Both the position numbers and the translations under genes were made by a program. The notes below the pieces were generated by a model, which saw nothing but the letters and a program-made list of their open reading frames with translations, searched no databases and was not told where the DNA came from. A DNA stretch of 64,000 nt from an uncultured Acidobacteriota bacterium (lineage in GTDB: Bacteria; Acidobacteriota; Thermoanaerobaculia; UBA5066): positions 26,751-90,750 of the forward strand of contig CAIMWE010000025.1 in NCBI GenBank assembly GCA_903845115.1. Direction: 5' to 3'. This document shows, piece by piece, positions 4,829 to 43,224 of this stretch; within the stretch, counting starts at the first letter, position 1, and each line of letters starts with the position of its first letter.

Positions 4829-4944
4829 TTTCTCCTCCATTCCCGAGAGAGAAACCGGCCGTGCCCCGCCGGCCCAGAAGGAGGGCCGGCGGTCCGAATC
4901 GAAGAGGGCGAGGGGCTGCCCGAATCGAATCATGGCCCTGGCGC

Positions 4945-8975: not shown

Positions 8976-9076
8976 GGATCCCCCATTTGCGGGCGGGTCG
9001 CGCCGCCCTGCCCCGAGATTATCGGCCCCCGCACCTTCGGGGTCCGGTGACGGGCGACAATGGAAAGCACAGGAGA

Positions 9077-12000: not shown

Positions 12001-12044
12001 CGCCTCCTAGGATAGTGGGTCGGAGCACTACACTCGGGTCCGCG

Positions 12045-14176: not shown

Positions 14177-15712
14177 TCAGCCGGCCAGGAGCATCCGGTT
14201 GAGCGGGTCGCGCGTCTCGCCGACCGACGTGACGCGCACGGCAGCCTCCTCGCCCACCGGGCACCTGTTCTCGCAGATCCCGCAGCCGACGCAGCGGAGC
14301 GGCTCGATCCTGGGCCGCTTCAGGTGGACCGTTCCGGCTCCGCCCCGGAGCGGCTCGTCCACCTCGTCGAACCAGATCGCCTTCGGGTCGGTCGGGCAGA
14401 CCTCCTCGCAGACGATGCACGGCGTCTGCATGGCCCAGGGGAGGCATTTCCCCTTGTCGACGAAAGCGGTCCCGATCCGGACCGGCGGCCTCCCGTCGTA
14501 GCCCGTCTTCCGGGCGGCCGGCAGCGGTTCGATCGCCCCGGTCGGGCAGACCTCGCCGCAGCGGGTGCATGCGAACTCGCAGCCGCCCCGGCGCGGCACG
14601 ACGACCGGCGTCCAGAACCCCTCCACCCCCGCCTCGCCGATGGCCGGCTGGAGGGCCCCGGTCGGGCAGGTCTGCTGGCAGAGCGCGCACTTGACGCAGC
14701 GGGAGAGGAACTCCTTCTCGCCCAGGGCGCCGGGAGGACGGATCAGCCCCGCCCTGGCCGCGTCACGGCCACCGCCGGAGACGCGGAGGACCGGCGCGAC
14801 GACGGCGGCGCCGAGGGCGGTGCCGACGAGGGCACGTCGGGAGAGGTCGGGCTTCCGCGGGGGAGCTGGAAGCGCCGGGAGGAGCCCGTACGTCAGCGCC
14901 CCCTCGGGGCACTTCGGCAGGCAGCTGAGGCAGACGTGGCACTCGGCGACCCGGTGGCTCCCGAGCGGCTCGTCGGCCCCCTGGCAGGCGAAGGAGCAGA
15001 GGCGGCAGTCGGTGCAGGCGCTGGCGCCGCGGCCGATCCGGAAGAGGGAGAACCGGGCGAAGAGGCCGAGGAACGCGCCGAGAGGGCAGAGCGCGCGGCA
15101 GAAGAGGCGAGGGATGAATCGGCTCGCGATCAGGAAGCCGAGCAACAGGCCCGCCGCGAGCCACCCGGCCGGCACCGCCCGCCCTCCCGGCAGGAGGGGC
15201 CACACGCCCGAAGAAAGGCCGCGCGCCAGGAGCGAGAGCGGGTCGAGGAGCCCGGTCTGGAGGCTCCCGAAGGCCGCACCGACCAGGAGGGCGACCAGGA
15301 GGTAGGTCTTCAGCGCGAACCAGGGGCGCCACCGGTTCGCCTCGAGGCTCTCCCGCTTCGTCCGCGGCGACAGGATCCACGAGAAGAGCTGCTGGAGCGT
15401 TCCGAATGGACAGATCCAGCCGCAGAAGACGCGGCCGAGGACGAGGGTGAGGAGGAGGAGGCCGATTCCCCAGAGGAGCGCTCCCGGAAGGGTCCCGGCT
15501 CCCATCGGGACAGCCGCTGCCGTGAGAGGGTCGGCGTGGTGGAAGAGGGCGTAGGGGAAGAGCCGTTCGTCCCCCGCGGAGAGGCGGGCGAGAAACCAGA
15601 CGAAGAGGCCGAGAAAAGCCGTCTGGTAGAGAACCCTGATCCGGACGGTCCAGGTCGGCCCGCTCCCCCGGTTCACCCCACCGGCGTCCTCACCCTTCCA
15701 TCCCCCGCTCAT
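14177..15712 (-). CDS. Membrane-bound polyferredoxin of the NapH/MauN family (multiple 4Fe-4S clusters)
   Basis: CGWICPFG motif in a TM segment plus six CxxCxxCxxxCP-type clusters (CVKCALCQQTCPTGA, CTRCGEVCPTGA, CIVCEEVCPTD, CVGCGICENRCPVG, ...). Start at ATG 15712 (MSGGWKGE); 15745 is an alternative. The ATG overlaps the TGA of the upstream lanA-like ORF (ATGA). Confidence 0.7.
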   Translation of the reverse strand: MSGGWKGEDAGGVNRGSGPTWTVRIRVLYQTAFLGLFVWFLARLSAGDERLFPYALFHHADPLTAAAVPMGAGTLPGALLWGIGLLLLTLVLGRVFCGWICPFGTLQQLFSWILSPRTKRESLEANRWRPWFALKTYLLVALLVGAAFGSLQTGLLDPLSLLARGLSSGVWPLLPGGRAVPAGWLAAGLLLGFLIASRFIPRLFCRALCPLGAFLGLFARFSLFRIGRGASACTDCRLCSFACQGADEPLGSHRVAECHVCLSCLPKCPEGALTYGLLPALPAPPRKPDLSRRALVGTALGAAVVAPVLRVSGGGRDAARAGLIRPPGALGEKEFLSRCVKCALCQQTCPTGALQPAIGEAGVEGFWTPVVVPRRGGCEFACTRCGEVCPTGAIEPLPAARKTGYDGRPPVRIGTAFVDKGKCLPWAMQTPCIVCEEVCPTDPKAIWFDEVDEPLRGGAGTVHLKRPRIEPLRCVGCGICENRCPVGEEAAVRVTSVGETRDPLNRMLLAG

Positions 15713-16089
15713 GCCGGGGCGATTCTGCACCCGTCCGGCCGCCACGCGGCTCCGCCGCGCTGGGACGACCCGTGAATGCGGCTCACGAGCAGGGGATGTC
15801 GTCCCAGGAGCTCAGAAATCGAAGCGGCTCCCCGGGTAATGGGGGGGCCCGGAATCGGACCCTTTGGGCCAAGCCCCACGGACCTGGCGTCGTCCGGGCT
15901 AAAGGATCCCGAAGATGAATACACCAGGGCGGTCAGGAGGAGACCGCCGCTCGCCTTGCCGAGTTCCTGCTCTCCGAGCTCCTCGCCCTCTTGAGGCCCC
16001 GTGTCCGACTCCTTGACGGTCTCCTTCTTCAAGGAAATCCCCTCCCCTCCCCCTGCGACCTGGTTCCCCTCTTCTGTACGTCCCGACAT
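15709..16089 (-). CDS. lanA: Lanthipeptide precursor-like ORF 1 (degenerate leader, atypical 75-aa Ser/Gly/Pro-rich core with one Cys)
   Basis: GGGAGG RBS sits 7 nt before ATG 16089. The leader is MSGRTEEGNQVAGGGEGISLKKETVKESDTGPQEGEELGEQELGKASGG. Its ISLKKETVKE block is conserved at nucleotide level (cttgacggtctccttcttca) with the three other precursors, and it ends in GG. The core is LLLTALVYSSSGSFSPDD...RPDGCRIAPA. Confidence 0.45.
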   Translation of the reverse strand: MSGRTEEGNQVAGGGEGISLKKETVKESDTGPQEGEELGEQELGKASGGLLLTALVYSSSGSFSPDDARSVGLGPKGPIPGPPITRGAASISELLGRHPLLVSRIHGSSQRGGAAWRPDGCRIAPA

Positions 16090-16304
16090 CTCGAACCTCC
16101 CTTCTTTCGTCACTCGCCGACTCCTCGTTCAGATCGCCTCGATCGAGTGTGACTTGACCCGGCTCACAATTCCGGCGTCACTTGCGAGGCCGAGTCTCCT
16201 CGGCCGTTCGCGCACGGCCCAAGCGTGCCCCTCGAGGACCGGCCCGCTCCACGGAATCTCGCCCTCCTGCAGGCGGACTGCACGTGCCACGCCGGGCCGC
16301 GCCG

Positions 16305-19300
16305 TCATCGGGCTGGACCCGCCCCAGCCTCCCTGGCGAGGCGCGAGGCATAGAGCCGCGAGAGGAGATCGAGCACGGCGAACTCCTGCCTCCGCTGCGC
16401 GGAGCGGAAGAGCCGGTTCATCTGCATGTGAACGAAGCTGACGGCCAGGTCCGCGAGGGGCCGACCGAGGCGCCCGCTCTTCTCCATCTCTCTAAGCGCC
16501 GCGCTCGGTTCGGCGACGGTTCTGGAACGCGCCCGGAAGACCTCGAGACCGGGGGCGAGGGGACCTTCCGGATCGTCCCGCGCTAGGAGGCTCTCCAGGC
16601 CCCTCGATTCCTTCCGGAACCGCTCGCCCAGGGCGCGCCTCAGGTGCGGCCCCTCGCCGTGCTCCTCGGCCAGGCCCTTGCGAGAGCTCTCCACGATGCG
16701 ACCCTTCTCGTCGGGAGAAAGGCCGAGGTCGTCGAGGAGAGCGTCCGCGCCGACCAGCGCGAGCCGCCACCGTTCCTCGTTCCCAGCGTCCCATTCCTCG
16801 AGGCGGGAGAGGATCTCGATGGCGGCTTCGCTGTCCGCGAAGAAGATCTTCTCGGCCAGTCCGATGGCGCCGGCTCCTCCGTAGCGCTCGATCTCCCGTT
16901 CGTAGGTGTCGAGCTGCATCCGCCAGACGCTTCCCGATTCCAGGAGCGGTGCGACCGCCCCGGAGATCGCACGGAGGGCCTCGTCCCGGAGGCGCGCCGG
17001 ATCCCCGTGCAGGCGAATCCGGACGTGGGGCCGGGGATCGGCATAGCGGACGAAGAACCAGCGGTCGGCAACCCCGCGGACGACCGCCTCGCGGACGATC
17101 GGCGCCAGCACGTCCCGCAGGACCCTCTCGGAGGTCGCGGCGCCGGCATAGATCTTTGCCGAGAGCCACTCCGAGCCGGGAGGGAAGCTCCGCCTCGAGC
17201 GCGGCGAGGGAGGGGCCGGTGGCGGCGCAGGGGCGATGGGAGCGGCGGAGACGGTCCGGGGCGTCTGGACGAAGGGGATCAGCAGCTCGTGGACGTAGCG
17301 CCCTTCCGGCCCGCGAGCGCACAGCTCGTCCGGCCCGGGAAACATCTCCGTCAGCTCGAGGCGCCGGAGTCTCCGGACCTGGTGCAAGAAGGCATCCAGC
17401 GAGAGCGGGGATTCGAGGTCGACCGGAAGACCGTTCTCGCCGTCACTGAGGACGACGTGCCGCGGCAAGCGCCGGCGCTTTCGCCACTCCGCCACCGCCC
17501 GGAACGCCTCCGCCCCTCGCGGCTTCGTCAGCTTCTCGAGCTCTTCTCCTTCCTCGGTCCAGCGCGCGCGGGAGAGGACCGTCCGTCCGCTCCGGACGCG
17601 CGGAAGGAAGGGGGCCGCGGCGAGAGGTCCCCACCTCCACGCGAGGCCTCCGGCAACGCCCTCTTCCTGGAGCTGGCAGAGGAATCTGTAGAGCCCCAGG
17701 CCGAACGCCCCGTAATTGTGGGCCGTCGTCATCCGCGGGAGGACCCGTCGGTTCAGCCGCCGGGATCGAAGGTGGACCTTCCCCCGGACCACCGAGAGCA
17801 TCAGGTCGGTCGCCGGGAGCTGCCGCTCCTCCGGGGCTCCCGACACTCCGAGGAAGGGAATCTCGTATTCGCGGAGGACCGGGCGGAGAAGGACGTTCCC
17901 GGCTCGCGCGTCGGGGAGATGGACCACTTCCGCGAGGATCGACTGCCCCTCGAGCGCTTCCTCCCTTCGCAGGTGCTCGCGGACGAGGGACTCCATTTCC
18001 GGGTTCCTCTGGCAGAAGCGGCCGAGCAGCCGGGCCCCGGACGGGCCTCCCACCCATTCGAGAAGGATCTGGAAACGGCCCGCCGCGAGGTCGGCGTCGG
18101 AGGCGGTGGCCACCTGGACCATCGCCGCGAACGCTCCCGGGAGCGGGCGGGGCTCGCGCGCCGCCAGCGCCTCCAGGTCCTTCGCGGAGAGGACGATCTC
18201 CGTCTCGCCCTTCTCCGCCGCGCCCGTGACCTTTCTCAGGAGGAGACTTTGCACGCCGCCCCACCCCTCCGGACCGCCCCGAAGGGGGAAGGCGAGCCCC
18301 TGCAGGAGCGGCGCTCCCTCGGCTCCGTCTTCCGGATGGGGCGGGAACCCGATCCCCGACTCGTCGTCGAGGGCCTCGACAAGGGGAATCTCCCGCTCCT
18401 CGTAGCGCTCGACGAACGCCTGCCGGAAAGAGGCCAGGAGCGGGTTCTCGCCCGATCCGAGGCGCCACAGCCGCTCGACTCCCCGCCGGACCTCCTCGAG
18501 GACCGCCTTCCCTACGGTCGCTTCGGGAGAGGCCTTCGACAGGTCGACCTGGAAGAGGCGGGAGAGCTCCGGGCGGACCGGAAGCGCCGCCAGCCGCGAG
18601 GCGAGAGTCCGGTAGCGTTCCGGAGGATGACCCGAGACCGAGGCATCCAGGAGCTCCAGCTCGTGGCATGCCTCCCGGAGAACGGTCGAGACCGCCGTCG
18701 AGGTGGGGTTCGCCCCGAGACGATCGGCCATCGAGGCGGCCAGCTCGGGTCCCGTCAGGACGAAGCCGGTCTCGGGGACGAGGACCTGGGCGTCGAGGAG
18801 CTCGTCCAGGTATTCCTTGGCTTCGGCAAGGCTCGTCTCTCCATCGACCAGCGCCCCGGCCAGCTCTCCCGCGCGCGCCCCGGGGCGGGAACGGAGCAGC
18901 GTCGCCGAGTGATGAGGGGCCGGCTCGACCGAGACCAGGTGGAAGGTTCGGTTGCGTCCGTCGACGCGCGCCTCGACGTAGCGGATCCGCTCCCCGACTT
19001 CGTAGAGAGTCGAGTTCGGCCTGAGGACGAGGCCTTCGCGGAGGACCCGGTCGCGCGCGATCGCGTCGTGGAGCGCGAAGAGGAAGTCCGTGTCGAGGCG
19101 GGAGCGCCGCGTGCTGGCTCCGGTCTCCCCCAGCACGAGCCGCGTCGTCCCGCCGGTCCGGCCCGTGGAGGTCCCCGCGAAGAGACCGAAAGGGGTGGCG
19201 CGCCCCGTCATCCGGGAGAAGTACTTGACGATCGCCCGTTCGGCCCGCTCGCCCCGATCGCTTCCCGGGGCCTCGAGCCAGCGGGGGATCGCTTCGTCGA

Positions 19301-19550
19301 GGTCGGGCGAGGCGAGGAAGAGCGCTTCCCGGACCGCCGGGCGAGCGACGAGGTCCCGGAGGCGGCGTCTCTGCAGAACGCGGTCCGCCGCCAGGGCCGC
19401 TTCCAGCTTCTCCGAGTCCTCGACGACGGCCGCCGACGAGAGCCCCTCGCCCCAGCGGAGGAACTCGTCGAAGGGGAGGAGCGGCGTCCGGATCGCGACG
19501 AAGCCGGAAGGCTCGAAGGGAGGGACCCTCTTGCGGTCCGGCGACGTCAT
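16305..19550 (-). CDS. lanB: Class I lanthipeptide dehydratase LanB (full length, glutamylation + elimination domains), about 1081 aa
   Basis: The N-terminus ...PFEPSGFVAIRTPLLPFDEF is the canonical LanB N-terminal motif. The large central region is followed by a SpaB_C-type C-terminal domain (...SFVHMQMNRLF...). Start chosen at ATG 19550 (MTSPDRKRVPPFEP). The track ORF start 19679 is a GTG that would overlap precursor 2 by 74 nt. Confidence 0.8.
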   Translation of the reverse strand: MTSPDRKRVPPFEPSGFVAIRTPLLPFDEFLRWGEGLSSAAVVEDSEKLEAALAADRVLQRRRLRDLVARPAVREALFLASPDLDEAIPRWLEAPGSDRGERAERAIVKYFSRMTGRATPFGLFAGTSTGRTGGTTRLVLGETGASTRRSRLDTDFLFALHDAIARDRVLREGLVLRPNSTLYEVGERIRYVEARVDGRNRTFHLVSVEPAPHHSATLLRSRPGARAGELAGALVDGETSLAEAKEYLDELLDAQVLVPETGFVLTGPELAASMADRLGANPTSTAVSTVLREACHELELLDASVSGHPPERYRTLASRLAALPVRPELSRLFQVDLSKASPEATVGKAVLEEVRRGVERLWRLGSGENPLLASFRQAFVERYEEREIPLVEALDDESGIGFPPHPEDGAEGAPLLQGLAFPLRGGPEGWGGVQSLLLRKVTGAAEKGETEIVLSAKDLEALAAREPRPLPGAFAAMVQVATASDADLAAGRFQILLEWVGGPSGARLLGRFCQRNPEMESLVREHLRREEALEGQSILAEVVHLPDARAGNVLLRPVLREYEIPFLGVSGAPEERQLPATDLMLSVVRGKVHLRSRRLNRRVLPRMTTAHNYGAFGLGLYRFLCQLQEEGVAGGLAWRWGPLAAAPFLPRVRSGRTVLSRARWTEEGEELEKLTKPRGAEAFRAVAEWRKRRRLPRHVVLSDGENGLPVDLESPLSLDAFLHQVRRLRRLELTEMFPGPDELCARGPEGRYVHELLIPFVQTPRTVSAAPIAPAPPPAPPSPRSRRSFPPGSEWLSAKIYAGAATSERVLRDVLAPIVREAVVRGVADRWFFVRYADPRPHVRIRLHGDPARLRDEALRAISGAVAPLLESGSVWRMQLDTYEREIERYGGAGAIGLAEKIFFADSEAAIEILSRLEEWDAGNEERWRLALVGADALLDDLGLSPDEKGRIVESSRKGLAEEHGEGPHLRRALGERFRKESRGLESLLARDDPEGPLAPGLEVFRARSRTVAEPSAALREMEKSGRLGRPLADLAVSFVHMQMNRLFRSAQRRQEFAVLDLLSRLYASRLAREAGAGPAR

Positions 19551-19605
19551 CTCGAGGCGAAGGCCAGGTGGGTGAGATCCGACGACGTTCCGCCGAGACG
19601 GTCCA

Positions 19606-19920
19606 CTAAGACTTGCACCCGCCGATCTGATAGGTCGGGGCGACCACGAGACACCCGGGGGTCGCCGAGTTTCCGTCACACACGGGGCGGGTTCCGCAGC
19701 ACGCGGTCGGGCTGTTGGACGGGGCAGGGGAACACGGGTTCATGGCTGCCGCGGAGACCCGGGCCCTCTGCATTCCGCCGTTCACCGCGCCGAGCTGGTC
19801 GTCCCCGAGTTCCCCGGGCTCGCCGGGGCCGCGGCCGAGGTCCTTGACGGTCTCCTTCTTCAGCGTGAGCTTCTTCACGCTCTTCTCTGCCCCCGTCCCT
19901 TTTTCGTTCGAGTTCGTCAT
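19606..19920 (-). CDS. lanA: Lanthipeptide precursor 2 (LanA): 49-aa leader plus 55-aa Cys/Ser/Thr-rich core
   Basis: Leader MTNSNEKGTGAEKSVKKLTLKKETVKDLGRGPGEPGELGDDQLGAVNGG contains LTLKKETVKDL (LxLxKx5L) and a VNGG double-glycine end. The core MQRARVSAAAMNPCSPAPSNSPTACCGTRPVCDGNSATPGCLVVAPTYQIGGCKS has 6 Cys and many Ser/Thr. Confidence 0.75.
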   Translation of the reverse strand: MTNSNEKGTGAEKSVKKLTLKKETVKDLGRGPGEPGELGDDQLGAVNGGMQRARVSAAAMNPCSPAPSNSPTACCGTRPVCDGNSATPGCLVVAPTYQIGGCKS

Positions 19921-20176
19921 CTCCGTTCCCTTTTCTCTCCGCCGGCTCCCGCCCGATCAGCAGGTTCCGCCCCGGGTTCGTTTTCGGAAGGACCAAGAGC
20001 GTGCCGTTTCCCTCACCCTGCGCGAAGCGTCACGGCACGCCGTTCCCCGGCTGGAGGAGCGACCGCCGCCGCGTGCGGCCGACGGCAGGAACCGGAAAGC
20101 GCGGCTCGCGAATCGGGCGAGGGGCTCCCCACAGCCGCGCCCGTCGTGATCAAGGCGTCGCCGCGGGGCGGCCCTC

Positions 20177-20455
20177 CTAGGGCCAGTGGCAAATGCCGCC
20201 CGGGCTCGATTCCGGGATGCACGCGGGACGCGTACCGGGAAGCACGGGCGGCTTTCCGACACAGGCGTTCGACGGGCCCTTGGGAATGAGGTTCGGGTTC
20301 TGCATCTGCCCGCCGTTCACCGCCTCGAGCTGGTCGTCGCCAAGTTCCTTCCCGTTCCCGCGTCCCGAGTCGAGGTCCTTGACGGTCTCCTTCTTCAGCG
20401 AGAGCTTCTTGACGCCTCCCGGCGGCATCTTCCCTTCTTCGTCGGATCTCGTCAT
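20177..20455 (-). CDS. lanA: Lanthipeptide precursor 3 (LanA): 49-aa leader plus 43-aa core
   Basis: Start at ATG 20455 (MTRSDEEGKMPPGGVKKLSLKKETVKDLDSGRGNGKELGDDQLEAVNGG). The core QMQNPNLIPKGPSNACVGKPPVLPGTRPACIPESSPGGICHWP has 3 Cys. The upstream 39 codons of the track ORF are read-through into the intergenic/promoter region. Confidence 0.75.
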   Translation of the reverse strand: MTRSDEEGKMPPGGVKKLSLKKETVKDLDSGRGNGKELGDDQLEAVNGGQMQNPNLIPKGPSNACVGKPPVLPGTRPACIPESSPGGICHWP

Positions 20456-20539
20456 TTCAAGAGTCCTTTCCCCGGGGCGTTGTGCCCGAATTGTCCGTCT
20501 TGATTGCCGACTCGTCCGTGGGCCACCGCGATCGGTACC

Positions 20540-20554
20540 GCAATCGAGATGCCA
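20540..20554 (-). promoter_or_regulatory. Sigma54 (-24/-12) promoter, TGGCAT-N5-TTGC, upstream of precursor 3
   Basis: The reverse complement of 20540-20554 is TGGCATCTCGATTGC (consensus TGGCAC-N5-TTGCW; GG and GC correctly spaced). It lies in the LanC-precursor 3 intergenic region, about 85 nt upstream of the ATG. Confidence 0.5.
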
Positions 20555-20593
20555 GGGAAGGCCGTGGGCCATCCGGAGCCCCCCCGGGGGGCG

Positions 20594-21907
20594 TCACGCG
20601 GCACCGCCGCCGGAGAGGAGGAGCATCCTGTCCCATCCCGGCTCCACCGGGGTGGCCGCGGCGAGGAACGCGAGGGCGATGCCGGCGCTGCCCGTGAGGA
20701 GCCCGGGGAGACCCTTCCAGCGGATCGTTCCGTCGTCGTCCGGCCACCGGCACGTGTAGCCCGCCAGGCCGCTTCCGGGCTGCCGCATCTCTAGGGCCTT
20801 CTCGAGCCAGAAGATCCCGGCGCTCCGCAGCTCCTCGTGGCCCGTGAACTGCCAGAGGCGATTGAAGACGTGGCCCAGGCCCGCGGCTCCGTGGCACAGG
20901 CCGGCGTCGAGGACCCCGGTCTCCTCCGACCGTCGCCGAGCCGCCCGAAGGGCGATCCCCACGGCCTGCCTCTCCCACTCCGATTCGTCCGCGCTCTTCG
21001 CCGCCACGGTCAGCGCCGCCGCCACTCCGGGATCGCCGTAGCACCAGGCCGAGCGGCAGTCGCCCGGCTCGACGCCGGGGACGAGCCAGTACGGGAAGCG
21101 GGATCCCTCGCCGGACCGCCCCTGCCCCAGGAGCCACGCCACAGCGCCGTCGAGGAGTCCCCGTGCCTTCTCCCGCGAGATGTCGGCCGCCGTGATCCGT
21201 CCAAGGAGAGCGATGACGCCCGGGACTCCGTGGGCGAGGCCGAGGTTGTAGTGACCGCCCGGAGACGATTCCACGTGCGAGGGAGGCAAGAGGCTCGGAG
21301 GGGTGTGCCAGGTGAGCTCCGGGCCCTTCCGTTCCGCCCTTTCCGAGAGCCTGTCCACGATCCGCTCGAGACACCTGACCGCGGCCGGGCGGGGGAGTCG
21401 TTCGAGCGCGTAGACGCCGAAGCCGACGAGGCCGCTGACGAGGTCGTAGTCGCCCGTCCAGGGCGAGTCATCGACGACGGAGAGAAGCTCGTCGTCTATT
21501 TCGGCGGCCGGGTCGTCCGGGCCGTCCACGGGGGTCGTGACGTGCGACACGGCCCACGCCAGTCCGCTGTAGCCGCTGTAGAAGGAAGGACCCATCACGA
21601 CCGAAGCAGCCGCGTCGGCCGACTCGTTGAGGAGCTCCGAGGCCTTCTCGAGGCCGCCCGGATCGACGCCGCACTCCGCCAGGTACGCGAACAGAACTGC
21701 GAGACCGGCCGTTCCCCCGGCAAGGGACGCCGGTCGCGTTCCCCCTCCCCCTTCCGCGGGACCTTCGATCGGGTCCCAGTCTGCCAGCGGGCCGGCGAGC
21801 GTCTCGCCGATGGACCGTGCGGTGTCGAGGGCTCGGTCAGCCAGAGCTCCGTCGAGGACGGGCCTCCACGGCCTCCCTCGATTCAGGGTAACGGGAAGGT
21901 CGGGCAT
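20594..21907 (-). CDS. lanC: Lanthionine cyclase LanC
   Basis: All three LanC zinc-ligand motifs are present: GLAHGVPG (GxAHG), WCYGDPG (WCxG) and GLCHGAAG (CHG). The start is ambiguous (ATG 21907 MPDLPVTLNRG chosen; ATG 21952 and GTG 21982 are alternatives). The 3' end of precursor 4 overlaps. Confidence 0.8.
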   Translation of the reverse strand: MPDLPVTLNRGRPWRPVLDGALADRALDTARSIGETLAGPLADWDPIEGPAEGGGGTRPASLAGGTAGLAVLFAYLAECGVDPGGLEKASELLNESADAAASVVMGPSFYSGYSGLAWAVSHVTTPVDGPDDPAAEIDDELLSVVDDSPWTGDYDLVSGLVGFGVYALERLPRPAAVRCLERIVDRLSERAERKGPELTWHTPPSLLPPSHVESSPGGHYNLGLAHGVPGVIALLGRITAADISREKARGLLDGAVAWLLGQGRSGEGSRFPYWLVPGVEPGDCRSAWCYGDPGVAAALTVAAKSADESEWERQAVGIALRAARRRSEETGVLDAGLCHGAAGLGHVFNRLWQFTGHEELRSAGIFWLEKALEMRQPGSGLAGYTCRWPDDDGTIRWKGLPGLLTGSAGIALAFLAAATPVEPGWDRMLLLSGGGAA

Positions 21908-22152
21908 TGCACGGTGAACACCTGAGCGGTCGTCTTCGAGAGGGTCGGGCATCGCTCCGGCCCGGGAAGCACCGCTGGACACACCTGGGTCACCAGGGGC
22001 CTGCGGCCACCTGGTCCGACGATTCCTCCGCCATTTACTCGGTCGAGCTCGCCGTCTCCGAGCTCCCCGGGCTTCTTCCGCCCCGCGTCGAGGTCCTTGA
22101 CCGTCTCCCTCTTCAAGGAGAGTTTCTTAGGACCAGCGGCCTTCTTCGTCAC
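21883..22152 (-). CDS. lanA: Lanthipeptide precursor 4 (LanA): 42-aa leader plus 47-aa core
   Basis: GAGGAGG RBS sits 5 nt before GTG 22152, giving MTKKAAGPKKLSLKRETVKDLDAGRKKPGELGDGELDRVNGG. The core GIVGPGGRRPLVTQVCPAVLPGPERCPTLSKTTAQVFTVQCPTFPLP has 3 Cys. The track ORF start 22206 has GGAG abutting the ATG with zero spacing, so it is less likely. Confidence 0.65.
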   Translation of the reverse strand: MTKKAAGPKKLSLKRETVKDLDAGRKKPGELGDGELDRVNGGGIVGPGGRRPLVTQVCPAVLPGPERCPTLSKTTAQVFTVQCPTFPLP

Positions 22153-22225
22153 GTCAACCTCCTCGGAACCCGGATCCCCGCAGGGGGGCACGTCGTCGCT
22201 CGTCATCTCCCCCGGGCTCGTTCTC

Positions 22226-22240
22226 GCAACTCCCGGACCA
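22226..22240 (-). promoter_or_regulatory. Candidate sigma54 (-24/-12) promoter, TGGTCC-N5-TTGC, upstream of precursor 4/lanC
   Basis: The reverse complement of 22226-22240 is TGGTCCGGGAGTTGC, with GG-N10-GC spacing correct. It lies between the enhancer-binding-protein gene and precursor 4. Confidence 0.4.
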
Positions 22241-22318
22241 CGCCCCCCGGCCCCGCCGGGAACGCCGTCGGGGCTTTGCCCGTCCCGATTCGAGTCGGCC
22301 CGCCCCGTTTCGAGCGCC

Positions 22319-23296
22319 CTATTTCAGGGCAGCCAGCTTCCTTTCGAGGGTGGAGCGGGAAACTCCGAGGGCCTGCGCCGCCCGGGTCTTGTTCCCTCCG
22401 AGCGCGGCCAGGGCCTGGCGCACGTGGGCCTGCTCGAGCGAACGGAGCGACTGGACCGGGCCCGGACGGGGCGCGGGAGGAGAGGAGGGACCGGCCGATT
22501 CGTCCGCCGCGCCCGGTAGGAGGATCGCCCGCTCGTCGATCACCTCGCCTTCCGTCAACGCCACCGCGGCATGGATGACCTGGTCCAGCTCCCGGAGGTT
22601 TCCCGGCCAGGCGTAGGTGACCAGCGCCTGGACCGCGCCCTCCGTGAGCCCGACGATCACGCGGCCCTGCGAGCGGGCTGCGCTCTGGACGGCGGCGGCG
22701 GCGAGGACCCGCAGGTCGGTCGGCCGTTCGCGGAGCGGGGGAAGGGTGACGGTCAGCCCGGCGATCCGGTAGAAGAGGTCGGTCCGGAACTGGGCGGAGT
22801 TCACGAACTTCGCGAGGGGGTAATGCGTGGCCGAGATGAGCCTCACGTCGGCGTCCCGGAGCACCTCGGAGCCCAGCCTCTCGAACTCGCCGCACTCCAC
22901 CGCGCGGAGGATCTTGGCCTGCGCGAGCGCGCTCATGTCCGCGATCTCGTCGATGAACAGGGTCCCGCCGTCGGCCTGCTCGAATTTTCCCCTGACCTGC
23001 TTCTGGGCTCCCGTGAAGGCCCCTTTCTCGTGGCCGAAGAGCTGGCTGTCGAGGAGCGTGTCGGAGAGCGCGGCCGCGTTGAACGAGACGAACGGGCCGG
23101 AGGCCCTCCGGGAGGAGTTGTGGATGGCCCGGGCCAGGAAGGTCTTTCCGGTCCCGGACTCCCCGAGGATCAGGATGGGAAGGTCCGTCCGACAGGCGGA
23201 ACGGGCCATGGCGAGGCAACGCGCCATCGCCGAATCGGACGTCTCGAAGCGGTCGAGCGTCAAATGGCCGGAACCGAGGTGGTTGGCTCTCGTCAC
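22319..23296 (-). CDS. Sigma54-dependent transcriptional activator, AAA+ plus Fis-type HTH, no N-terminal sensor/receiver domain (PspF-like)
   Basis: Walker A GESGTGKT, GAFTGA motif (FGHEKGAFTGAQ), arginine finger region, and C-terminal HTH RAAQALGVSRSTLERKL. Only about 35 aa precede the AAA+ core. Confidence 0.8.
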   Translation of the reverse strand: MTRANHLGSGHLTLDRFETSDSAMARCLAMARSACRTDLPILILGESGTGKTFLARAIHNSSRRASGPFVSFNAAALSDTLLDSQLFGHEKGAFTGAQKQVRGKFEQADGGTLFIDEIADMSALAQAKILRAVECGEFERLGSEVLRDADVRLISATHYPLAKFVNSAQFRTDLFYRIAGLTVTLPPLRERPTDLRVLAAAAVQSAARSQGRVIVGLTEGAVQALVTYAWPGNLRELDQVIHAAVALTEGEVIDERAILLPGAADESAGPSSPPAPRPGPVQSLRSLEQAHVRQALAALGGNKTRAAQALGVSRSTLERKLAALK

Positions 23297-23402
23297 CGGC
23301 GGGACACCTCCGGGACGGGACGGCCCTGCGGGGCGGGTTCTCGCGGCTCCACCGGACTCTTGCTGCGTTCGACCCGGCAGGTCCTCCCGCGCTGCCGCAT
23401 CG

Positions 23403-24386
23403 TCACGCCGTTCCGAGGTCCTTCACCAGAGAGAGGTCCCGCCGGCCCAGACCCCTCTTCTCCGCCTCCGTGATCCACCCGAGCGACGACGGCTCGAGCC
23501 CCATCTGCGTGACGCCCCACGCCTCGCAGAGGACCGGGTCGATCCCCGCGAGGACGGCGTTCACCGCCTTCACGTCGGAGAGGCTCCCCCCCTGTGGGCC
23601 GTTGGCGAGGAGGACGCGCGTCGCGTCGACGACGGTCAGCGTCGGCCGGAAGGTGGCTCCGAGCTCCGCGACCGCCCTGTCGATCCCCTGGTGAAGCCGG
23701 TTCCGGCCGCGGCCGAGGACCCCCATCCAGTTCTTCATCCCGACCGTCGCCCGGGAGAGGCCGTGGTGCTTGACCACGGGGACGTTGATCACCCGCTGGC
23801 ACGAGAAGAGGAGGTCGATCACCTCGAGTCCCGCCGAGGAGCCGGAGAGGGAGGCCTGAACCAGCTTCAGCGACTTCCCGTCCAGGACCTCGGCCCCCGC
23901 CGCCTGCGCCGCCTCGCGCAGGCCGGAGCGGGTCAGCGACCGGACCGGGTCGTTGACGGAGAGATCGGCCACCACGACCCGCCTGGCGCCCGCCGCCCGG
24001 CAGAGACGGACCAGCTCCGCGACCACGTTCGGGTCGGTGTTGGCCGCCTGCTCCGGGAGCCGGTCCCAGCCGGCATTCGGCTTGATCAGGACGCTCTCCC
24101 CTCTCTTCACGAAGGCTTCCATTCCGCCGAGCGCCGCCACGGCCCGTCTCACGTTGGCCGCCGGGTCGGCCCCCCGCGCCGCGGCCCCCTTCGGAGCCGC
24201 GTCGGACCGGGGAACCCGCCAGTCGGGGATCTCCGGGGCGGCCGCCTCGAGCCGCCGCCGGTCGTGGAAGAAGAGGGCGCCTCCGCCGATCGCCGCCGCG
24301 GCGATGCCGGTCGAGGCGAGGCGGGAGGCGATCTCGCGGCGGGTCGGCTTCTCTTCGTAAGGGTCCAGCGAGGGGAGGTCGGTCAT
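23403..24386 (-). CDS. Tat-secreted DUF362 domain protein
   Basis: AGGAGA RBS precedes ATG 24386. Twin-arginine signal TRREIASRLASTGIAAAAIGG, then a DUF362 core (VLIKPNAGW..., VVKHHGLSRATVGMKNWMGVLG). The 208 upstream codons of track ORF 23403..25010 are alternate-frame. Confidence 0.55.
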   Translation of the reverse strand: MTDLPSLDPYEEKPTRREIASRLASTGIAAAAIGGGALFFHDRRRLEAAAPEIPDWRVPRSDAAPKGAAARGADPAANVRRAVAALGGMEAFVKRGESVLIKPNAGWDRLPEQAANTDPNVVAELVRLCRAAGARRVVVADLSVNDPVRSLTRSGLREAAQAAGAEVLDGKSLKLVQASLSGSSAGLEVIDLLFSCQRVINVPVVKHHGLSRATVGMKNWMGVLGRGRNRLHQGIDRAVAELGATFRPTLTVVDATRVLLANGPQGGSLSDVKAVNAVLAGIDPVLCEAWGVTQMGLEPSSLGWITEAEKRGLGRRDLSLVKDLGTA

Positions 24387-24946
24387 GGCGTCTTCTCCTG
24401 GAATGTGGCGCGCGCCAGGGCCTCGAGGCGGGTGGCCGCTTCGGGCCCGGGAGCGAGCGAGGTGAGCTTCAGGTAGTCGCGACCACGGACCGCGAGCAGG
24501 ACGTTGCCGTCCGATACGGCGTCGGCCGGCCCGGCGACCCGCACGGCGGCCGACGGCCGCTCTGCGTCCCGCTGCGCTCTCGCCCCGATCTCCGTCTCGA
24601 ACCGGTGGAGCTCGGCGGAGATCTCGGGGCTCTGTCCGGGACCGCCCGAGCCCGGGTAGGTGTAGACCGCGATCAGCGCGGAGACGAAGCCCCGCGCGAG
24701 GTAGCCGTCCGCGGCGCCGTCGATCGCCTCGTAGAGCGACTCGCGGTCGTAGCGCGCCGGGTCCGACCGGGAGGCGCTCCCCGCGGCCACCGCGCCGGGG
24801 AGGAGAGGGCCACGGCTCGCCCGGAGAGCCGCCAGGACGGCGCCCCGGTCGGGAGTGGCTCGCTTCCCTTGCTGCCAGACCCAGCCGCCGAGAGCCAGGA
24901 GCGGCAACAACAGGAGGAAATGCAGGGCCCGGGGCCTTTCTCGCAC
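24383..24946 (-). CDS. Hypothetical exported protein
   Basis: N-terminal hydrophobic helix MRERPRALHFLLLLPLLALGGWVW. A 4-nt overlap (ATGA) with the downstream DUF362 gene suggests translational coupling. Confidence 0.4.
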   Translation of the reverse strand: MRERPRALHFLLLLPLLALGGWVWQQGKRATPDRGAVLAALRASRGPLLPGAVAAGSASRSDPARYDRESLYEAIDGAADGYLARGFVSALIAVYTYPGSGGPGQSPEISAELHRFETEIGARAQRDAERPSAAVRVAGPADAVSDGNVLLAVRGRDYLKLTSLAPGPEAATRLEALARATFQEKTP

Positions 24947-25183
24947 CCCCTGAGCTTACGCCCGAGAGCCTGATCAGGGCCTCGTCCCGAGCGCTCCAGA
25001 CACCGGCCACGACCGAGACCTCTTGCGTTAACGCGGCCCCTTCCCTCCGGGGTATTGCTCAGAGACAGTGTCGCAATTTGGGCACTAGTCGGTTCGAAAT
25101 CTCATCTTGGGTACATTTTCGCGTTGGACCCGGCCGGCTCGGGTGCTACCCTTTCCCAAAACGATCCATCCAGGAGGTGTGAG

Positions 25184-28100
25184 ATGACGCTTTCCCGGCG
25201 AGGTTTCCTCAAGGCAGGGACGGTCGGCGGAACGATCGCCCTCGGCTTCGACTTCTCCGAGGCCCGGGCCGAGTTGCGGGACCTGAAGATCTCGCGAACG
25301 ACCGAGACCCGCTCCACCTGCCCGTACTGCTCGGTCTCGTGCGGCGTCATCATCCACACGCTGGGAGACAAGGCCAAGAACGTGACCGGGTCGGTCGTCC
25401 ACGTGGAAGGGGACCCGGATCATCCGATCAACCGGGGGACCCTCTGTCCCAAGGGGGCCACGCTCAAGGAGGACATCCGGAACCCGCACCGGTTGATGGT
25501 GCCGCAGGTGCGGCGCCCGGGGTCGAGCAAGTGGGAGGAGATCTCCTGGGACGAGGCTATCGCCGGGATCGCGGGGAAGGTCAAGGAGACGCGCGACAAG
25601 ACGTTCGTCACGAAGAACGGCAAGGGGCAGACGGTCAGCCGGAATCCCGGGATGGCGGTCATCGGCGGCTGCACCGACACGAGCGAGTTCGCCTACCTCC
25701 TCTGGAAGAGCTCGATCGCGCTGGGGGCCGTCTACAGGGACCACCAAGCACGGGTTTGACACGGACCGACGGTGGCCAGTTTGGCCGCCACGTTCGGTCG
25801 GGGGGCGATGACCAACGGGTGGGTCGACATCAAGAATGCCGACGTGGTCTTCGTCATGGGCGGAAACCCCGCCGAGAACCACCCCTGCGGCTTCAAGTGG
25901 GCGATCGAGGCCCGCAAGGCGCGCGGCGCCAAGATCGTCGTCGTCGACCCGCGGTTCACCCGGACCGCCGCCGTGGCCGACGTCTACGCGCCGCTGCGCG
26001 CCGGAACCGACATCGCGTTCCTCCTCGGGATCTGCCGCTACGCGATCGAGAACAAGAAGGTCCACGAGGAGTACGTCAAGCTCCACACCAACGCGTCGGT
26101 CCTGGTCAGCGACAAGTTCGCCTTCGACGAGGGGCTCTTCTCGGGCTACGACGGCGAGAAGCGCGCCTACGACAAGGGGTCGTGGGCGTTCCGGGTCGAC
26201 GACAAGGGGATGCTCGAGACCGACCCGACGCTCCAGAACCCGCGGTCGGTCTTCCAGCTCCTCAAGAAGCACGTCGACCGGTACACGCCGGAGATGGTCG
26301 AGAAGGTCTGCGGCACGCCGAAGGACCAGTTCCTGAAGGTGGCCGAGGCGGTCAGCTCGACCGGGAACGCCCAGAAGGTCGGGACGATCCTCTACGCTCT
26401 CGGCTGGACGCAGCACTCCACCGGCGTCCAGATCATCCGGGCGTCCGGGATCCTGCAGCTCCTCCTCGGGAACGTCGGGCGGCCCGGCGGCGGCGTGAAC
26501 GCGCTCCGCGGCCACTCCAACATCCAGGGCGCCACCGACATGGGGGGCAACTTCGACGTCTACCCCGGCTACCTGAAGGCCCCCCAGGCCACGATGCCGG
26601 CGCTGAAGGACTACCTCGAGGCGAACACGCCCAAGGCTCTGACCACGGCGTCGATGAACTACAGCCAGAACACCCCGAAGTTCATGACGTCGCTCCTGAA
26701 GGCGCTCTACGGAAAGGCGGCGACGAAGGAGAACGACTTCGGCTACGGCTGGCTCCCGAAGGCGGACGGCAACTACTCCTGGCTCTTCATGTTCGACGAC
26801 ATGCTCAAGGGGAAGTCGAAGAGGGCCGACGTCGAGGAGGCCGCGCCGGAAGGGCTCTTCGCCTGGGGGATGAACCCCGTGGCGACGGGACCCAACTCCA
26901 AGAAGATGGTGGCGGCCCTGGCGAAGCTGAAGTGGCTCGTCGTGGTCGAGAACTCCGAGACCGAGACCGCCGGCTTCTGGAAGGCGCCCGCCGAGTACGA
27001 GGGCCCCGAGGCTTCCAAGATCCCCACGGAGGTCTACCTCCTCCCGGCCGCGAGCTTCGCCGAGAAGGACGGGACCTTCACGAACTCCGGCCGGTGGGTC
27101 CAGTGGAAGTGGAAGGCGGTCGACCCGCCGGGGAAGGCCAAGGCCGACCAGGAGATCCTCTCGAGGATCCTGCTGGCGGTGAAGGATCTCTACAAGAAGG
27201 AAGGGGGCGCGTTCCCCGAGCAGGTCCTGAACGTCGCCTGGAGCTACACGAACCCGGTCAGCCCGGACCTCGGGGAGGTGCTCAAGGAGATCAGCGGCAA
27301 GGCGCTGGCCGAGCTCCCCGACCCGAAGGACAAGACGAAGATCCTCAAGAACCCCGGCCAGCAGCTCGACGGGTTCGGCCAGCTGCAGGACGACGGGACC
27401 ACCTCCTGCGGCAACTGGATCTACGGCGGGGCGTTCACCGAGGCCGGGAACCTGACCCAGCGGCGCCTGGCGACCGACCCGATGGGCCTCGGGGCGTTCC
27501 ACCAGTGGGGCTTCTCGTGGCCGGCGAACCGCCGCGTCCTCTACAACCGCGCCTCGGCCGACGCCGACGGCAAGCCGTGGGATCCGACCCGCTCCGGGAT
27601 CTCCTGGAACGGCGAGAAGTGGGTCGGCGACGTCCCGGACATCAAGCCCGACTCGCCCCCCGGCACCTTCGGCGCCTTCATCATGAACCCCGAGGGACTC
27701 GGCCGGCTCTACGCGCCGAGCCTCGCCGACGGACCCTTCCCCGAGCACTACGAGGCGACGGAAGCCGCCACCGACAACGTCCTCCACCCGAAGGTGACGT
27801 CGAGCCCGGTCGTGAGGGTCTGGAAGAGCGACAAGGACGCCCTCGGCAAGAAGGAGGACTTCCCGATCGTCTGCTCGACCTACCGGCTCACCGAGCACTT
27901 CCACTTCTGGACGCAGCACAACCCGCGCCTGAACCAGGTCCAGCCCGGCTTCTTCTTCGAGATCCCGGAAGGTCTCGCGAAGGAGAAGGGGATCGCCAAC
28001 GGCCAGCAGATCAAGGTCTCCTCCGCCCGCGGGTCGATCACCGCTCTCGCCATGGTGACGAAGCGATTCCGCCCGCTGAAGGCGAACGGGAAGGAGATCT

Positions 28101-28249
28101 GGCAGATCGGCCTGCCGATCCACTGGGGCTACGCGGGGAACCCCGACCACACCGGCCCCCTGGCCAACTTCCTCACCCCGACGACCGGCGACCCGAACAC
28201 CCTGACCCCGGAGTTCAAGACCTTCCTCGTGAAGGTCGAGAAGGCGTGA
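25184..28249 (+). CDS. fdnG: Formate dehydrogenase-N alpha subunit, selenocysteine-containing (in-frame TGA at 25757-25759)
   Basis: AGGAGG RBS precedes ATG 25184. Tat signal MTLSRRGFLKAG and the 4Fe-4S motif CPYCSVSCG. The context ...HQARV-TGA-HGPTVASL matches the FdnG/FdoG Sec site (RVUHGPTV). Track ORFs 25055..25759 and 25772..28249 are two halves in one frame joined by the TGA. Molybdopterin oxidoreductase domains run through to ...FKTFLVKVEKA. Confidence 0.9.
25771..25789 (+). promoter_or_regulatory. SECIS-like hairpin immediately 3' of the fdnG UGA
   Basis: ggtggcca-gtt-tggccgcc forms an 8-bp stem (one G-U pair), starting 12 nt after the UGA. The position is appropriate for a bacterial SelB-binding element. 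Confidence 0.5.
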
Positions 28250-28259
28250 GGGGAGAGCG

Positions 28260-29141
28260 ATGACCGCCAATCTCGAGATCGTCCGCTCCTCCGCCAGCAC
28301 GTGGGGAGGGGCCTCCGGCCTCCGCTCCCTCCCGGTCGTCTCCAAGTACATCGACACCTCCATCTGCATCGGCTGCAAGTCGTGCGAGGTCTCCTGCGCG
28401 GAATGGAACGACCTCCCTCCCGTCAAGACCGTGCAGACCGGCACCTACCAGACGATGCCGGAGACCCACGCCGCGTTCTGGAACCTGATCAAGTTCCGGG
28501 AGCAGGAGCACGAAGGGGGCTTCGCCTGGCTCTTCCGGAAGGACCAGTGCATGCACTGCTCCGACCCGGGGTGCCTCACGGCCTGCCCGGCACCCGGCGC
28601 GATCGTCCAGTACGCCAACGGCATCGTCGACGTCAATGCCGATCAGTGCATCGGCTGCGGCTACTGCGCGACCGGGTGTCCCTTCGACATCCCGAAGTTC
28701 CACGAGAAGACGGCGAAGATGCAGAAGTGCACACTCTGCGTCGACCGGAGCCGCCTCGGCCTGGAGCCGGCCTGCGTCAAGAGCTGCCCGTCCGGCTGCC
28801 TCCACTACGGGACGAAGGAGGACATGCTCCTCCTCGCGGCCCAGCGGGTCGCCCATCTGAAGAAGACCGGCTTCGCCGAGGCCGCCCTCTACGACCCGCC
28901 GGGGGTCGGAGGGACGACGGTGGTCACGGTCCTCGCCTTCGGGAACCACCCGGAGTGGTACGGCCTCCCGAAGGACCCGTCCATCCCGTGGACCGTCAAG
29001 CTCTGGAAGAACGTCCTCCGGCCGTTCGGCTTCATCGCGATCGTCGGGGCGATCATCGGCGCGTTCGGACACCATCTCTACCATGGCAACAAGGGGCACA
29101 TCGACCCGGCGCCCCTCGACGACGAGCCGCCGCAGGCGTGA
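28260..29141 (+). CDS. fdnH: Formate dehydrogenase-N beta subunit (4x[4Fe-4S], C-terminal TM anchor)
   Basis: CIGCKSCEVSC, CMHCSDPGCLTACP, CIGCGYCATGCP and CTLCVDR...CVKSCP motifs, plus the C-terminal helix FGFIAIVGAIIGAFGHHLY. Confidence 0.9.
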   Translation: MTANLEIVRSSASTWGGASGLRSLPVVSKYIDTSICIGCKSCEVSCAEWNDLPPVKTVQTGTYQTMPETHAAFWNLIKFREQEHEGGFAWLFRKDQCMHCSDPGCLTACPAPGAIVQYANGIVDVNADQCIGCGYCATGCPFDIPKFHEKTAKMQKCTLCVDRSRLGLEPACVKSCPSGCLHYGTKEDMLLLAAQRVAHLKKTGFAEAALYDPPGVGGTTVVTVLAFGNHPEWYGLPKDPSIPWTVKLWKNVLRPFGFIAIVGAIIGAFGHHLYHGNKGHIDPAPLDDEPPQA

Positions 29142-43179: not shown

Positions 43180-43224
43180 GCCCACCTCCAAGAGAAGACC
43201 CAGAATCGGTTCACGACTCTCCTC

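Follow-up and report, generated by a model that had tools for sequence, protein, structure and literature searches.

How a peptide cluster is controlled when the regulator beside it has the catalytic parts of a sigma-54 activator and no sensor domain is the question raised by a class I lanthipeptide cluster of an uncultured Acidobacteriota bacterium (Thermoanaerobaculia, UBA5066; assembly GCA_903845115.1). The stretch of DNA analyzed, positions 26,751 to 90,750 of contig CAIMWE010000025.1 (64,000 nt), is called the window, and the coordinates given are those of the window. The original prediction, drawn from the sequence alone, was that the lanthipeptide genes are driven by sigma-54 through an adjacent bacterial enhancer-binding protein (bEBP). 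Comparison with homologous loci supports it, through the gene context of 11 loci, -24/-12 elements and phased repeats, and we consider it likely on this comparative evidence that the bEBP is a stand-alone sigma-54 activator dedicated to the peptide cluster, which acts through direct repeats on one promoter (P1), with a second promoter (P2) and a regulatory cascade as further parts of the model. The features of the locus are listed below in the order of transcription; L001 is a homologous locus, syntenic with the window, in which the bEBP is 81% identical.

24383-24946, minus strand: DUF6599 gene (Pfam); the gene order directly upstream of the bEBP is as in L001
about 23403-24386, minus strand: DUF362 gene (Pfam), between the DUF6599 gene and the bEBP
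22319-23296, minus strand: bEBP, 325 aa (Pfam domains, structure alignment, family alignment)
22282-22328, minus strand: candidate enhancer (upstream activating sequence), conserved direct repeats R0/R1/R2
22240-22226, minus strand: P1, TGGTCC-GGGAG-TTGC (TGGTCCGGGAGTTGC), sigma-54 matrix score 9.4
GTG 22152 to 21883, minus strand: precursor A, the "precursor 4" of the original prediction (translation, L001 alignment)
ATG 21907 to 20594, minus strand: lanC cyclase, 437 aa (Pfam LANC_like, E=3.6e-36)
20554-20540, minus strand: P2, TGGCAT-CTCGA-TTGC (TGGCATCTCGATTGC), sigma-54 matrix score 13.5
20455-20177, minus strand: precursor B, previously "precursor 3", 92 aa (translation)
19920-19606, minus strand: precursor C, 104 aa, core with 6 Cys (translation)
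ATG 19550 to 16305, minus strand: lanB dehydratase, 1081 aa (Pfam Lant_dehydr_N, E=7e-153; Lant_dehydr_C, E=3e-65)
16089-15709, minus strand: degenerate precursor-like open reading frame (ORF) D, with a leader-like segment
15745-14177, minus strand: NapH/NapG-like polyferredoxin membrane protein, after lanB, likewise in L001

The cluster is of class I, with LanB (N- and C-terminal domains), LanC and precursors all present. Precursor A has the leader KKLSLKRETVKDL...RVNGG and a core with 3 Cys, and its GTG at 22152, preceded by GAGGAGG, is aligned with the ATG of the L001 homolog, which fixes the start there. An alternative ATG at 22206 was rejected, as it is not conserved in L001 and lies just 8 nt from the predicted transcription start. 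The start codon of lanC was assigned by hand to ATG 21907-21905, which shares its frame with the stop at 20594. From there lanC has 25 nt in common with the end of precursor A, and the overlap implies that the two are co-transcribed. Precursor B has the leader KKLSLKKETVKDL...AVNGG, also with 3 Cys in the core, and weakly matches NF038153, the NCBIfam model of class I lanthipeptide leaders (18.9 bits, cut-off 22). A common leader, KKL(S/T)LK(K/R)ETVKDL...VNGG, is found in precursors A, B and C, the cores of which carry 3 to 6 Cys, and the N-terminus of lanB aligns with that of the LanB of L001. Because the leaders end in a double glycine, a C39-peptidase ABC exporter is expected to cleave and export the products. 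No C39 or ABC exporter was found within the 64-kb window, and the one serving these peptides would be encoded elsewhere in the genome.

The bEBP was found to match the Pfam families Sigma54_activat (PF00158, E=4e-61, residues 20-183), AAA_lid_14 and HTH_8 (E=2e-11), and is built of an AAA+ core, a lid domain, a Pro/Ala-rich linker and a C-terminal Fis-type helix-turn-helix (HTH). The motifs GHEKGAFTGA, GESGTGKT (Walker A) and LFIDEI (Walker B) are intact. According to Pfam and to alignment with the structures of ZraR and PspF, the core begins at about residue 20-22 (residues 24-237 of PspF align to residues 33-245 of the bEBP), and with an in-frame stop upstream and GTG 23296 the first possible start codon beyond it, the ORF has no room for an N-terminal domain. 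Pfam, motifs and ORF limit agree on what had been predicted, an adjacent sigma-54 activator on the same strand with an intact GAFTGA AAA+ core and HTH and no N-terminal domain. The protein had also been called PspF-like, and this holds for the domain layout but not for orthology: the scores against the PspF models TIGR02974 (252.7 bits, cut-off 443.55) and NF008622 (225, cut-off 529) are well short of the cut-offs, and the cores of ZraR and NifA score above PspF in alignment to the bEBP. No NCBIfam equivalog cut-off was reached by the bEBP, with PspF, NifA, ZraR and the other named families far below, and neither the bEBP family nor the peptides have a model of their own in NCBIfam.

Two -24/-12 elements had been proposed, and a sigma-54 matrix scan of both intergenic regions recovered each of them. 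P2 is exactly where it had been placed: lanC ends at 20594, precursor B starts with ATG 20455, and P2 is inside the 138 nt that separate them. P1 sits in the 166-nt gap between the bEBP stop (22319) and the GTG of precursor A. The GG and GC are 10 nt apart in both, and P2 has one mismatch to TGGCAC-N5-TTGC. The predicted transcription starts, near 22214 for P1 and near 20528 for P2, give leaders of 62 nt to precursor A and 73 nt to precursor B, and an Rfam scan of 15500-25800 found no RNA element in these leaders, a SECIS element at 25754 being its only match. Scoring covered the 128,000 positions of the window; P2 (13.5) ranks second, a score reached by 1.6e-5 of positions, and P1 (9.4) about 11th, reached by 8.6e-5. 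The chance of such a score inside those short gaps is about 0.002 for P2 and about 0.014 for P1. The description of P1 as the weaker element stands as to its place and score rank, yet the candidate enhancer lies only there, and its positional homolog in L001, TGGTACGAGGGCTGCA, scores 14.8. When the intergenic gaps of the window are aligned pairwise with their L001 counterparts, conservation is seen in the -24/-12 blocks and in the repeats, and the surrounding sequence has diverged. Over the whole window, TGGCAC-N5-TTGC with at most one mismatch was found 3 times (1.7 expected) and TGG-N8-TTGC 8 times (2.7 expected; none of 100 shuffles gave as many, and half of the sites are inside genes). Such counts are not significant, and the window by itself is no more than suggestive. 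Two further candidates, CGGCACGCTCTTGGT upstream of precursor C (score 1.9) and TGGCACGTGCAGTCC downstream of lanB (score 5.6), were rejected since the -12 GC is absent from both.

A protein search returned at least 120 clusters with 60-81% identity to the bEBP. The best 120 homologs are all 289-356 aa long, and therefore all lack a sensor domain; the few named members come from Acidobacteria, Thermoanaerobaculia, Rokubacteria and Methylomirabilis bins. Ten homolog loci, picked solely for long contigs, were combined with the window to form a set of 11, among which the degree of phylogenetic independence is not established. Double-glycine small peptides or genes for peptides made on the ribosome and modified after translation (RiPPs) adjoin the bEBP in all 11, versus none of 80 generic bEBP loci (1 Mb). 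These control loci came from a scan of a genome collection with a back-translated bEBP pattern, which was discarded as a search for relatives after it hit universal AAA+ motifs and generic bEBPs only (38-48% identity), and were then reused as the negative control. By tblastn, the N-terminus of the exporter described below was detected in 8/10 family loci, and LanB and LanC in 5/10, with no match for any of them in the controls. Judging by length, annotation and neighborhood, this is a sizeable bEBP family without specific annotation that is dedicated to peptide loci.

The related loci are similar in layout. The bEBP gene comes directly after an exporter operon in eight of the ten, and this operon encodes a PpiC-like protein (about 350 aa, with a weak match to TIGR04500), an exporter with cNMP-binding, C39-peptidase and ABC domains (522 bits against TIGR03796, below the cut-off of 853) and an HlyD-like protein. 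In L092, the PpiC-like protein has 231 aa and the exporter and HlyD-like protein are each split into two genes. The bEBP gene overlaps the HlyD-like gene, the last of the operon, by 4 nt in 6/10 related loci, and starts 16 and 10 nt after the operon in L085 and L089, respectively. Between 1 and 10 same-strand ORFs of 33-78 aa follow the bEBP in seven of the eight exporter loci, and in L085, L087 and L089 lanC and then lanB come after these small ORFs. The remaining exporter locus, L002, has an ABC transporter pair directly after the bEBP, and its two small peptide ORFs and lanC-lanB lie upstream of the exporter operon, where they are encoded by the other strand. In L084 the bEBP overlaps by 4 nt an upstream 377-aa ORF, truncated where the contig ends and without any Pfam assignment, and the locus further includes a gene for YcaO and one for a fusion of a flavoprotein with LanC. 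The small ORFs of the related loci begin with a Lys-rich leader, KKLxLKKETVKDL...(K/R/N)GG, that is, a double-glycine cleavage signal. In an alignment of short bEBPs (A3), the GAFTGA motif was seen to deviate in P0012 (GAFTDA) and P0014 (GAYTGA).

A -24/-12 element precedes the peptides in all 11 loci. The top matrix match of the locus lies 30-150 nt upstream of a same-strand peptide ORF in L001, L002, L003, L084, L085, L089 and L094, and such a match ranks second in L087, L093 and the window. Within the 300 nt after the bEBP stop codon, a match with an empirical p of at most 0.045 is present in 9/11 loci (at most 0.027 in eight), and the Fisher combined p is 8e-8, the individual values being floored near 0.009 by the sliding-window design. 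The two exceptions are L002 and L084, where the peptides are located elsewhere and the top matrix matches are the peptide promoters.

Between the bEBP and P1 are direct repeats of the form CTCGAAwCGnnAC, 20-21 nt apart and starting 4 nt past the bEBP stop codon, preceded by a weaker copy:

22328-22316, minus strand: R0, CCTGAAATAGGGC, weak, overlapping the bEBP stop codon
22314-22302, minus strand: R1, CTCGAAACGGGGC, with R2 the top-ranked repeat pair
22294-22282, minus strand: R2, CTCGAATCGGGAC, starting 54 nt upstream of the P1 TGG

When the window and L001 were left out of the training of a repeat matrix, R1 and R2 came first and second among the 128,000 window positions and formed the sole pair at 20-22 nt spacing. 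The 1-Mb control loci contain no such pair, and L001, L003, L087 and L089 have exactly one each, at the expected place. The layout R0-14-R1-20/21-R2 recurs in L003, L084, L085 and L087, and R1-20/21-R2 alone in L001 and L089. The distances from R2 to the TGG of nine promoters are 54, 55, 55, 66, 86, 87, 88, 87 and 149 nt, and show helical phasing at 10.5 bp per turn (R=0.91, Rayleigh p=1.5e-4, L001 being dropped as a close relative of the window). The values differ by whole helical turns, and face-of-helix dependence is to be expected of an activator that acts by looping. L085 has three copies of the repeat array, one in each precursor cassette and all distant from the bEBP gene. The cassettes (9010-9140, 11460-11595 and 11945-12080) are near-identical, and each contains an array, the -24/-12 element TGGCCCGTCGATTGCT and a precursor, which shows that duplication has taken the regulatory module along with the precursor gene. 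The repeats of L002 and L084 are likewise found upstream of peptide promoters away from the 3' end of the bEBP gene, and in L092 the AAA at the repeat centre is replaced by TTT. The repeats are probably an enhancer bound by the bEBP, as their conservation and placement suggest. A third repeat-like match in the window, CTCGAAAGGAAGC (22348-22336, minus strand, score about 13), falls within the bEBP gene, in the codons for the conserved LERKL of the HTH. Its spacing (34 nt) puts it out of register with R1/R2, and codon conservation probably accounts for it.

Sequence elements, domain content, conservation, co-occurrence and phasing are what the loci show; repeat binding, dependence on sigma-54, the limits of the operons and the cascade belong to the model. 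In the mechanism proposed, the bEBP would bind the CTCGAAwCGnnAC repeats through its C-terminal HTH, assemble there and contact sigma-54 RNA polymerase at P1 on a fixed face of the helix, and ATP-driven opening of P1 would yield precursor A and lanC as one transcript. P2 would drive precursors B and C and lanB, the last two of which are probably read from it. Activation of P2 may come from the same bEBP, either at the enhancer about 1.7 kb upstream or from solution, without DNA binding, or P2 may depend on something else; this part of the model is held with lower confidence.

Several points, told in this paragraph and the four that follow, weigh against the reading just given. All of the evidence is computational, and the sigma-54 matrix is a rough one of our own, built from the consensus, so that its scores are approximate. 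P1 is a weak match (TGGTCC), and 11 window positions score as high. No sigma-54-like element was detected upstream of precursor C (best score 2.6) or of ORF D (best score 5.7). An RpoN-box search of the six-frame translation of the window gave no rpoN match; that the organism has rpoN is implied by the two bEBP genes in the window, the second of which is counted as support for the use of sigma-54. If the -24/-12 matches were due to chance, ordinary promoters would serve the cluster and the bEBP might have other targets, such as the DUF362 and polyferredoxin redox genes on either side. That view draws on whole-window motif counts that are near expectation, on the weakness of P1 and on the flanking genes, which in the window as in L001 are DUF6599/DUF362 genes upstream and one of NapH/G type downstream. 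A sigma-70 scan of 15500-25800 found zero promoter-like sites (0.1 expected), which says little in a 70% GC genome and in an organism whose promoter types are not established. However, peptides rather than DUF362 genes accompany the bEBP family in 9/11 loci, -24/-12 elements are present before the peptide ORFs of every locus, the matrix scan found no comparable element upstream of the DUF362 genes or the bEBP gene, and repeat and promoter are phased; chance is a very improbable explanation on this evidence.

As for the repeats, the motif was spotted by eye before it was tested, and in L093 and L094, the most distant loci, the repeats are poorly matched and only weakly recognizable. A blind metagenome scan with CTCGAAWCG-N11-12-CTCGAAWCG gave chance matches: among the matches listed (82 in 80 loci) none has a bEBP upstream, and the most promising, L103, was rejected because the sequence around it codes for a coiled coil. 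A collection of this size calls for a longer pattern, and for this reason the scan is uninformative rather than negative. Sites for bEBPs are more often inverted repeats, and direct repeats are unusual. The last point also leaves some room for the alternative that the repeats belong to another regulator or form an element at the 3' end of the bEBP mRNA, as such elements could also lie where these begin, 4 nt past the stop codon. We find this quite unlikely: they are direct repeats and not hairpins, and no terminator-like structure is predicted on the minus strand of the gap (the three terminator-like sites in a scan of 15500-25800 are all on the opposite strand). In L085 the repeats come in a copy for each promoter at a distance from the bEBP gene, and in L002 and L084 they precede peptide promoters elsewhere. 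The distance from repeat to -24 is phased, and the bEBP is the only DNA-binding protein conserved in all loci.

The part of the model that concerns P2 is less well anchored. Neither P2 nor its counterpart in L001 has an enhancer-like repeat within 260 nt, so that P2 is tied to the bEBP by proximity alone. Only P1 might belong to the bEBP, P2 being a chance match, the promoter of another activator or dispensable through read-through from P1, and we see this as a real if doubtful possibility. It is consistent with the three L085 promoters, each of which has its own array and which together suggest that a local enhancer is the rule, and with the presence of a second bEBP gene in the window. On the other side, only one position in the 64 kb is a better sigma-54 match than P2, which is found inside a gap of 138 nt; in comparison with L001 the block GGCA-N2-TCGATTGCG is conserved better than anything else in that gap, its flanks having diverged; and P2 has the extended -12 region CGATTGC, which it has in common with many peptide promoters of the related loci. 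NtrC sites, moreover, still function when moved more than 1 kb from glnAp2. We retain P2 within the preferred reading, in which one bEBP serves both promoters, at the reduced confidence given above.

What controls the activator itself? A PspA-like anti-activator had been thought to follow from the missing regulatory domain, and none of the neighborhoods bears this out. Since the bEBP gene follows, and usually overlaps, the end of the exporter operon, control through its expression level is suggested. Most simply, this arrangement can be read as a cascade with activator abundance as its signal: exporter and activator would be made first, and the activator would then turn on the precursors and modifying enzymes, so that no precursor would be made without the exporter. 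That the exporter-bEBP operon regulates itself was ruled out, because no sigma-54-like element was found upstream of it in the eight loci (best score 6.8). In the window and L001 the DUF6599/DUF362 genes replace the exporter beside the bEBP, and because of this the cascade logic may not apply to the window, which is the last of the points on the negative side.

The competing idea is that an anti-activator acting in trans, encoded elsewhere or by an uncharacterised neighbor, holds the bEBP in check in the manner of PspA with PspF or HrpV with HrpS. The known domain-less bEBPs, PspF and HrpR/HrpS, are controlled in this way (PMC7057263, PMC3105312, PMC3128695). The short N-terminal segment of the family contains an invariant Cys (Cys27 in the window bEBP) and the motif F-x-S/T-x-D, and these residues could form a surface for a partner. 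Candidates for such a partner that travel with the bEBP are the PpiC-like protein, the cNMP-binding domain of the exporter and a conserved small-ORF family (LxDLxPRxDPKGG...FGExP, described below); none of these genes is adjacent to it in the window or L001. No PspA/IM30, HrpV or other recognisable anti-activator was detected among the window ORFs scanned or in the gene tables of the ten related loci, and the 4-nt overlap with the HlyD-like gene in 6/10 loci fits control through expression. An anti-activator is unlikely in our view, while far from negligible, and control by the amount of activator is preferred.

A second conserved small-ORF family was observed in the related loci and is absent from the window. 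Its members have an Arg/Lys-rich N-terminus, then (V/I)xLxDLxPRxDPKGG, then an FGE(x)P segment. They are the first ORF past the sigma-54 promoter in L087, L089/L090 and L002, and come after other small ORFs in L092 and L093. The positions are:

L087, 9101-9292: second small-ORF family
L090, 9175-9393: second small-ORF family
L092, 9610-9795: second small-ORF family
L093, 9382-9543: second small-ORF family
L002, after 4266, minus strand: uncalled ORF of the same family

In both the window and L001, the bEBP and lanthipeptide genes are flanked by DUF6599/DUF362 genes upstream and a NapH/NapG-like polyferredoxin gene downstream (324-1870 and 8595-10085 in L001). These could be redox tailoring or accessory genes, or could reflect the shared ancestry of two related genomes, and it is uncertain whether the polyferredoxin gene is a member of the cluster. 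A 535-aa "DUF362" ORF in the window was discarded as an over-extended call, the true layout being DUF6599 plus DUF362 as in L001. The 3' end of ORF D overlaps the start of the polyferredoxin gene; the ORF has a recognisable yet degraded leader (ISLKKETVKE...KASGG) and a 77-residue core with a single Cys, and may be a decaying precursor copy.

Elsewhere in the window, the second bEBP gene is divergent from a polysulfide/thiosulfate-reductase-like operon (molybdopterin subunit, NrfD) and close to genes for sulfur transport and rhodanese. The features in this region are:

43332-44816, plus strand: second bEBP, 494 aa, its N-terminal 180 aa or so without a Pfam match
40966-43248, minus strand: gene near the second bEBP
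39435-40403, minus strand: gene near the second bEBP
44834-46030, minus strand: gene near the second bEBP
49675-50586, plus strand: gene near the second bEBP

The best sigma-54 match of the window, TGGCAGCCTGCTTGCA at 49540 (plus strand), is about 120 nt upstream of the rhodanese gene, and a weaker one at 43240 (minus strand) precedes the reductase gene. The Rfam match is to SECIS_3 at 25754-25800 (plus strand, 51 bits, E=1e-9), clipped at the edge of the scan; it falls in the ORF region 25339-28263, at the start of a molybdopterin oxidoreductase gene, and suggests a selenocysteine-containing enzyme similar to formate dehydrogenase. FdhE-like (29845-30636) and FdhD-like (8987-9943) genes are found near it. 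Two adjacent large paralogs of 813 and 729 aa, each with a DUF6600 domain, are encoded at 2507-4948 and 4945-7134 on the minus strand.

A more general proposal can be put forward tentatively, as one that is possible rather than probable. The family may be a widespread and undescribed group of sensor-less bEBPs in Acidobacteriota-, Rokubacteria- and Methylomirabilis-like bins that serves as the master switch of double-glycine/RiPP loci by binding phased direct repeats. It would be made from the exporter operon, so that export capacity licenses the precursors, and the sensor would be supplied in trans by the cNMP-binding domain of the exporter or by a conserved small peptide. Lanthipeptide and other RiPP clusters of uncultured soil phyla are usually silent in laboratory hosts. 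If the activator works as proposed, supplying this one small protein in a host that has rpoN could allow such clusters to be expressed. The family would be a third, large group of sensor-less activators after PspF and HrpR/S, and with it would come a defined candidate enhancer, made up of direct repeats in phase, and a simple scheme open to testing: exporter and activator first, precursors afterwards. The combination of bEBP, repeats, -24/-12 element and a Lys-rich leader ending in GG also provides a sequence signature for unannotated small-peptide genes in metagenomes. What the comparison of loci has added is the peptide-dedicated activator family, the defined candidate enhancer and the helical phasing of enhancer and promoter.

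It had been noted that RiPP clusters under RpoN/bEBP control are rarely reported, and in the full-text literature, with most subscription journals outside its scope, no report was found that precursor genes of lanthipeptides, RiPPs or double-glycine bacteriocins have sigma-54 promoters. In the NisRK and SpaRK systems, control is exerted by a dedicated regulator of the cluster, with separate promoters for the precursor and the downstream genes. The present locus is similar in both respects, its regulator being encoded inside the cluster and its putative promoters for precursor and downstream genes being separate. The difference is that NisRK and SpaRK are kinase/response regulator pairs that sense the mature peptide and act on sigma-70 promoters, whereas the present cluster has neither a kinase nor a response regulator and would rely on an AAA+ ATPase and -24/-12 promoters. 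Clades of two-component systems for lanthipeptide clusters have been described (PMC10663231). In Myxococcus xanthus, genes for polyketides and non-ribosomal peptides are directly under sigma-54 promoters and bEBPs (PMC7910581); those are polyketide synthase and non-ribosomal peptide synthetase genes, controlled by NtrC-like bEBPs with sensor or receiver domains, and RiPPs, lanthipeptides and bacteriocins are unmentioned in that work.

Exporters of the HetC type, with cNMP-binding, C39 and ABC domains, have been described (PMC10986499), and the same exporter layout, together with an HlyD-like protein, is found before the bEBP in eight of the ten related loci. No sigma-54 regulator is described with NHLP, Nif11-type or HetC exporters in the searchable literature, and the window is without such an exporter. 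HrpR and HrpS of Pseudomonas syringae, which act at the hrpL promoter, are sensor-less bEBPs whose activity is set in trans and by expression level (PMC3105312, PMC7057263). They differ from the bEBP described here in being a co-dependent pair with an inhibitor, HrpV, while a single gene is present here, with no HrpV-like gene and another regulon. The nearest likeness in form is to PspF at the pspA promoter of Escherichia coli. The bEBP is not an ortholog of PspF, and no PspA-like partner was found in any of the loci studied here. The two proteins share size and layout, an AAA+ core and HTH with no N-terminal regulatory domain, and action on a nearby sigma-54 promoter through upstream sites would be common to both. 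The targets of PspF are membrane-stress genes, whereas those predicted here are peptide precursors and modifying enzymes, and the candidate binding sites of the present family are phased direct repeats.

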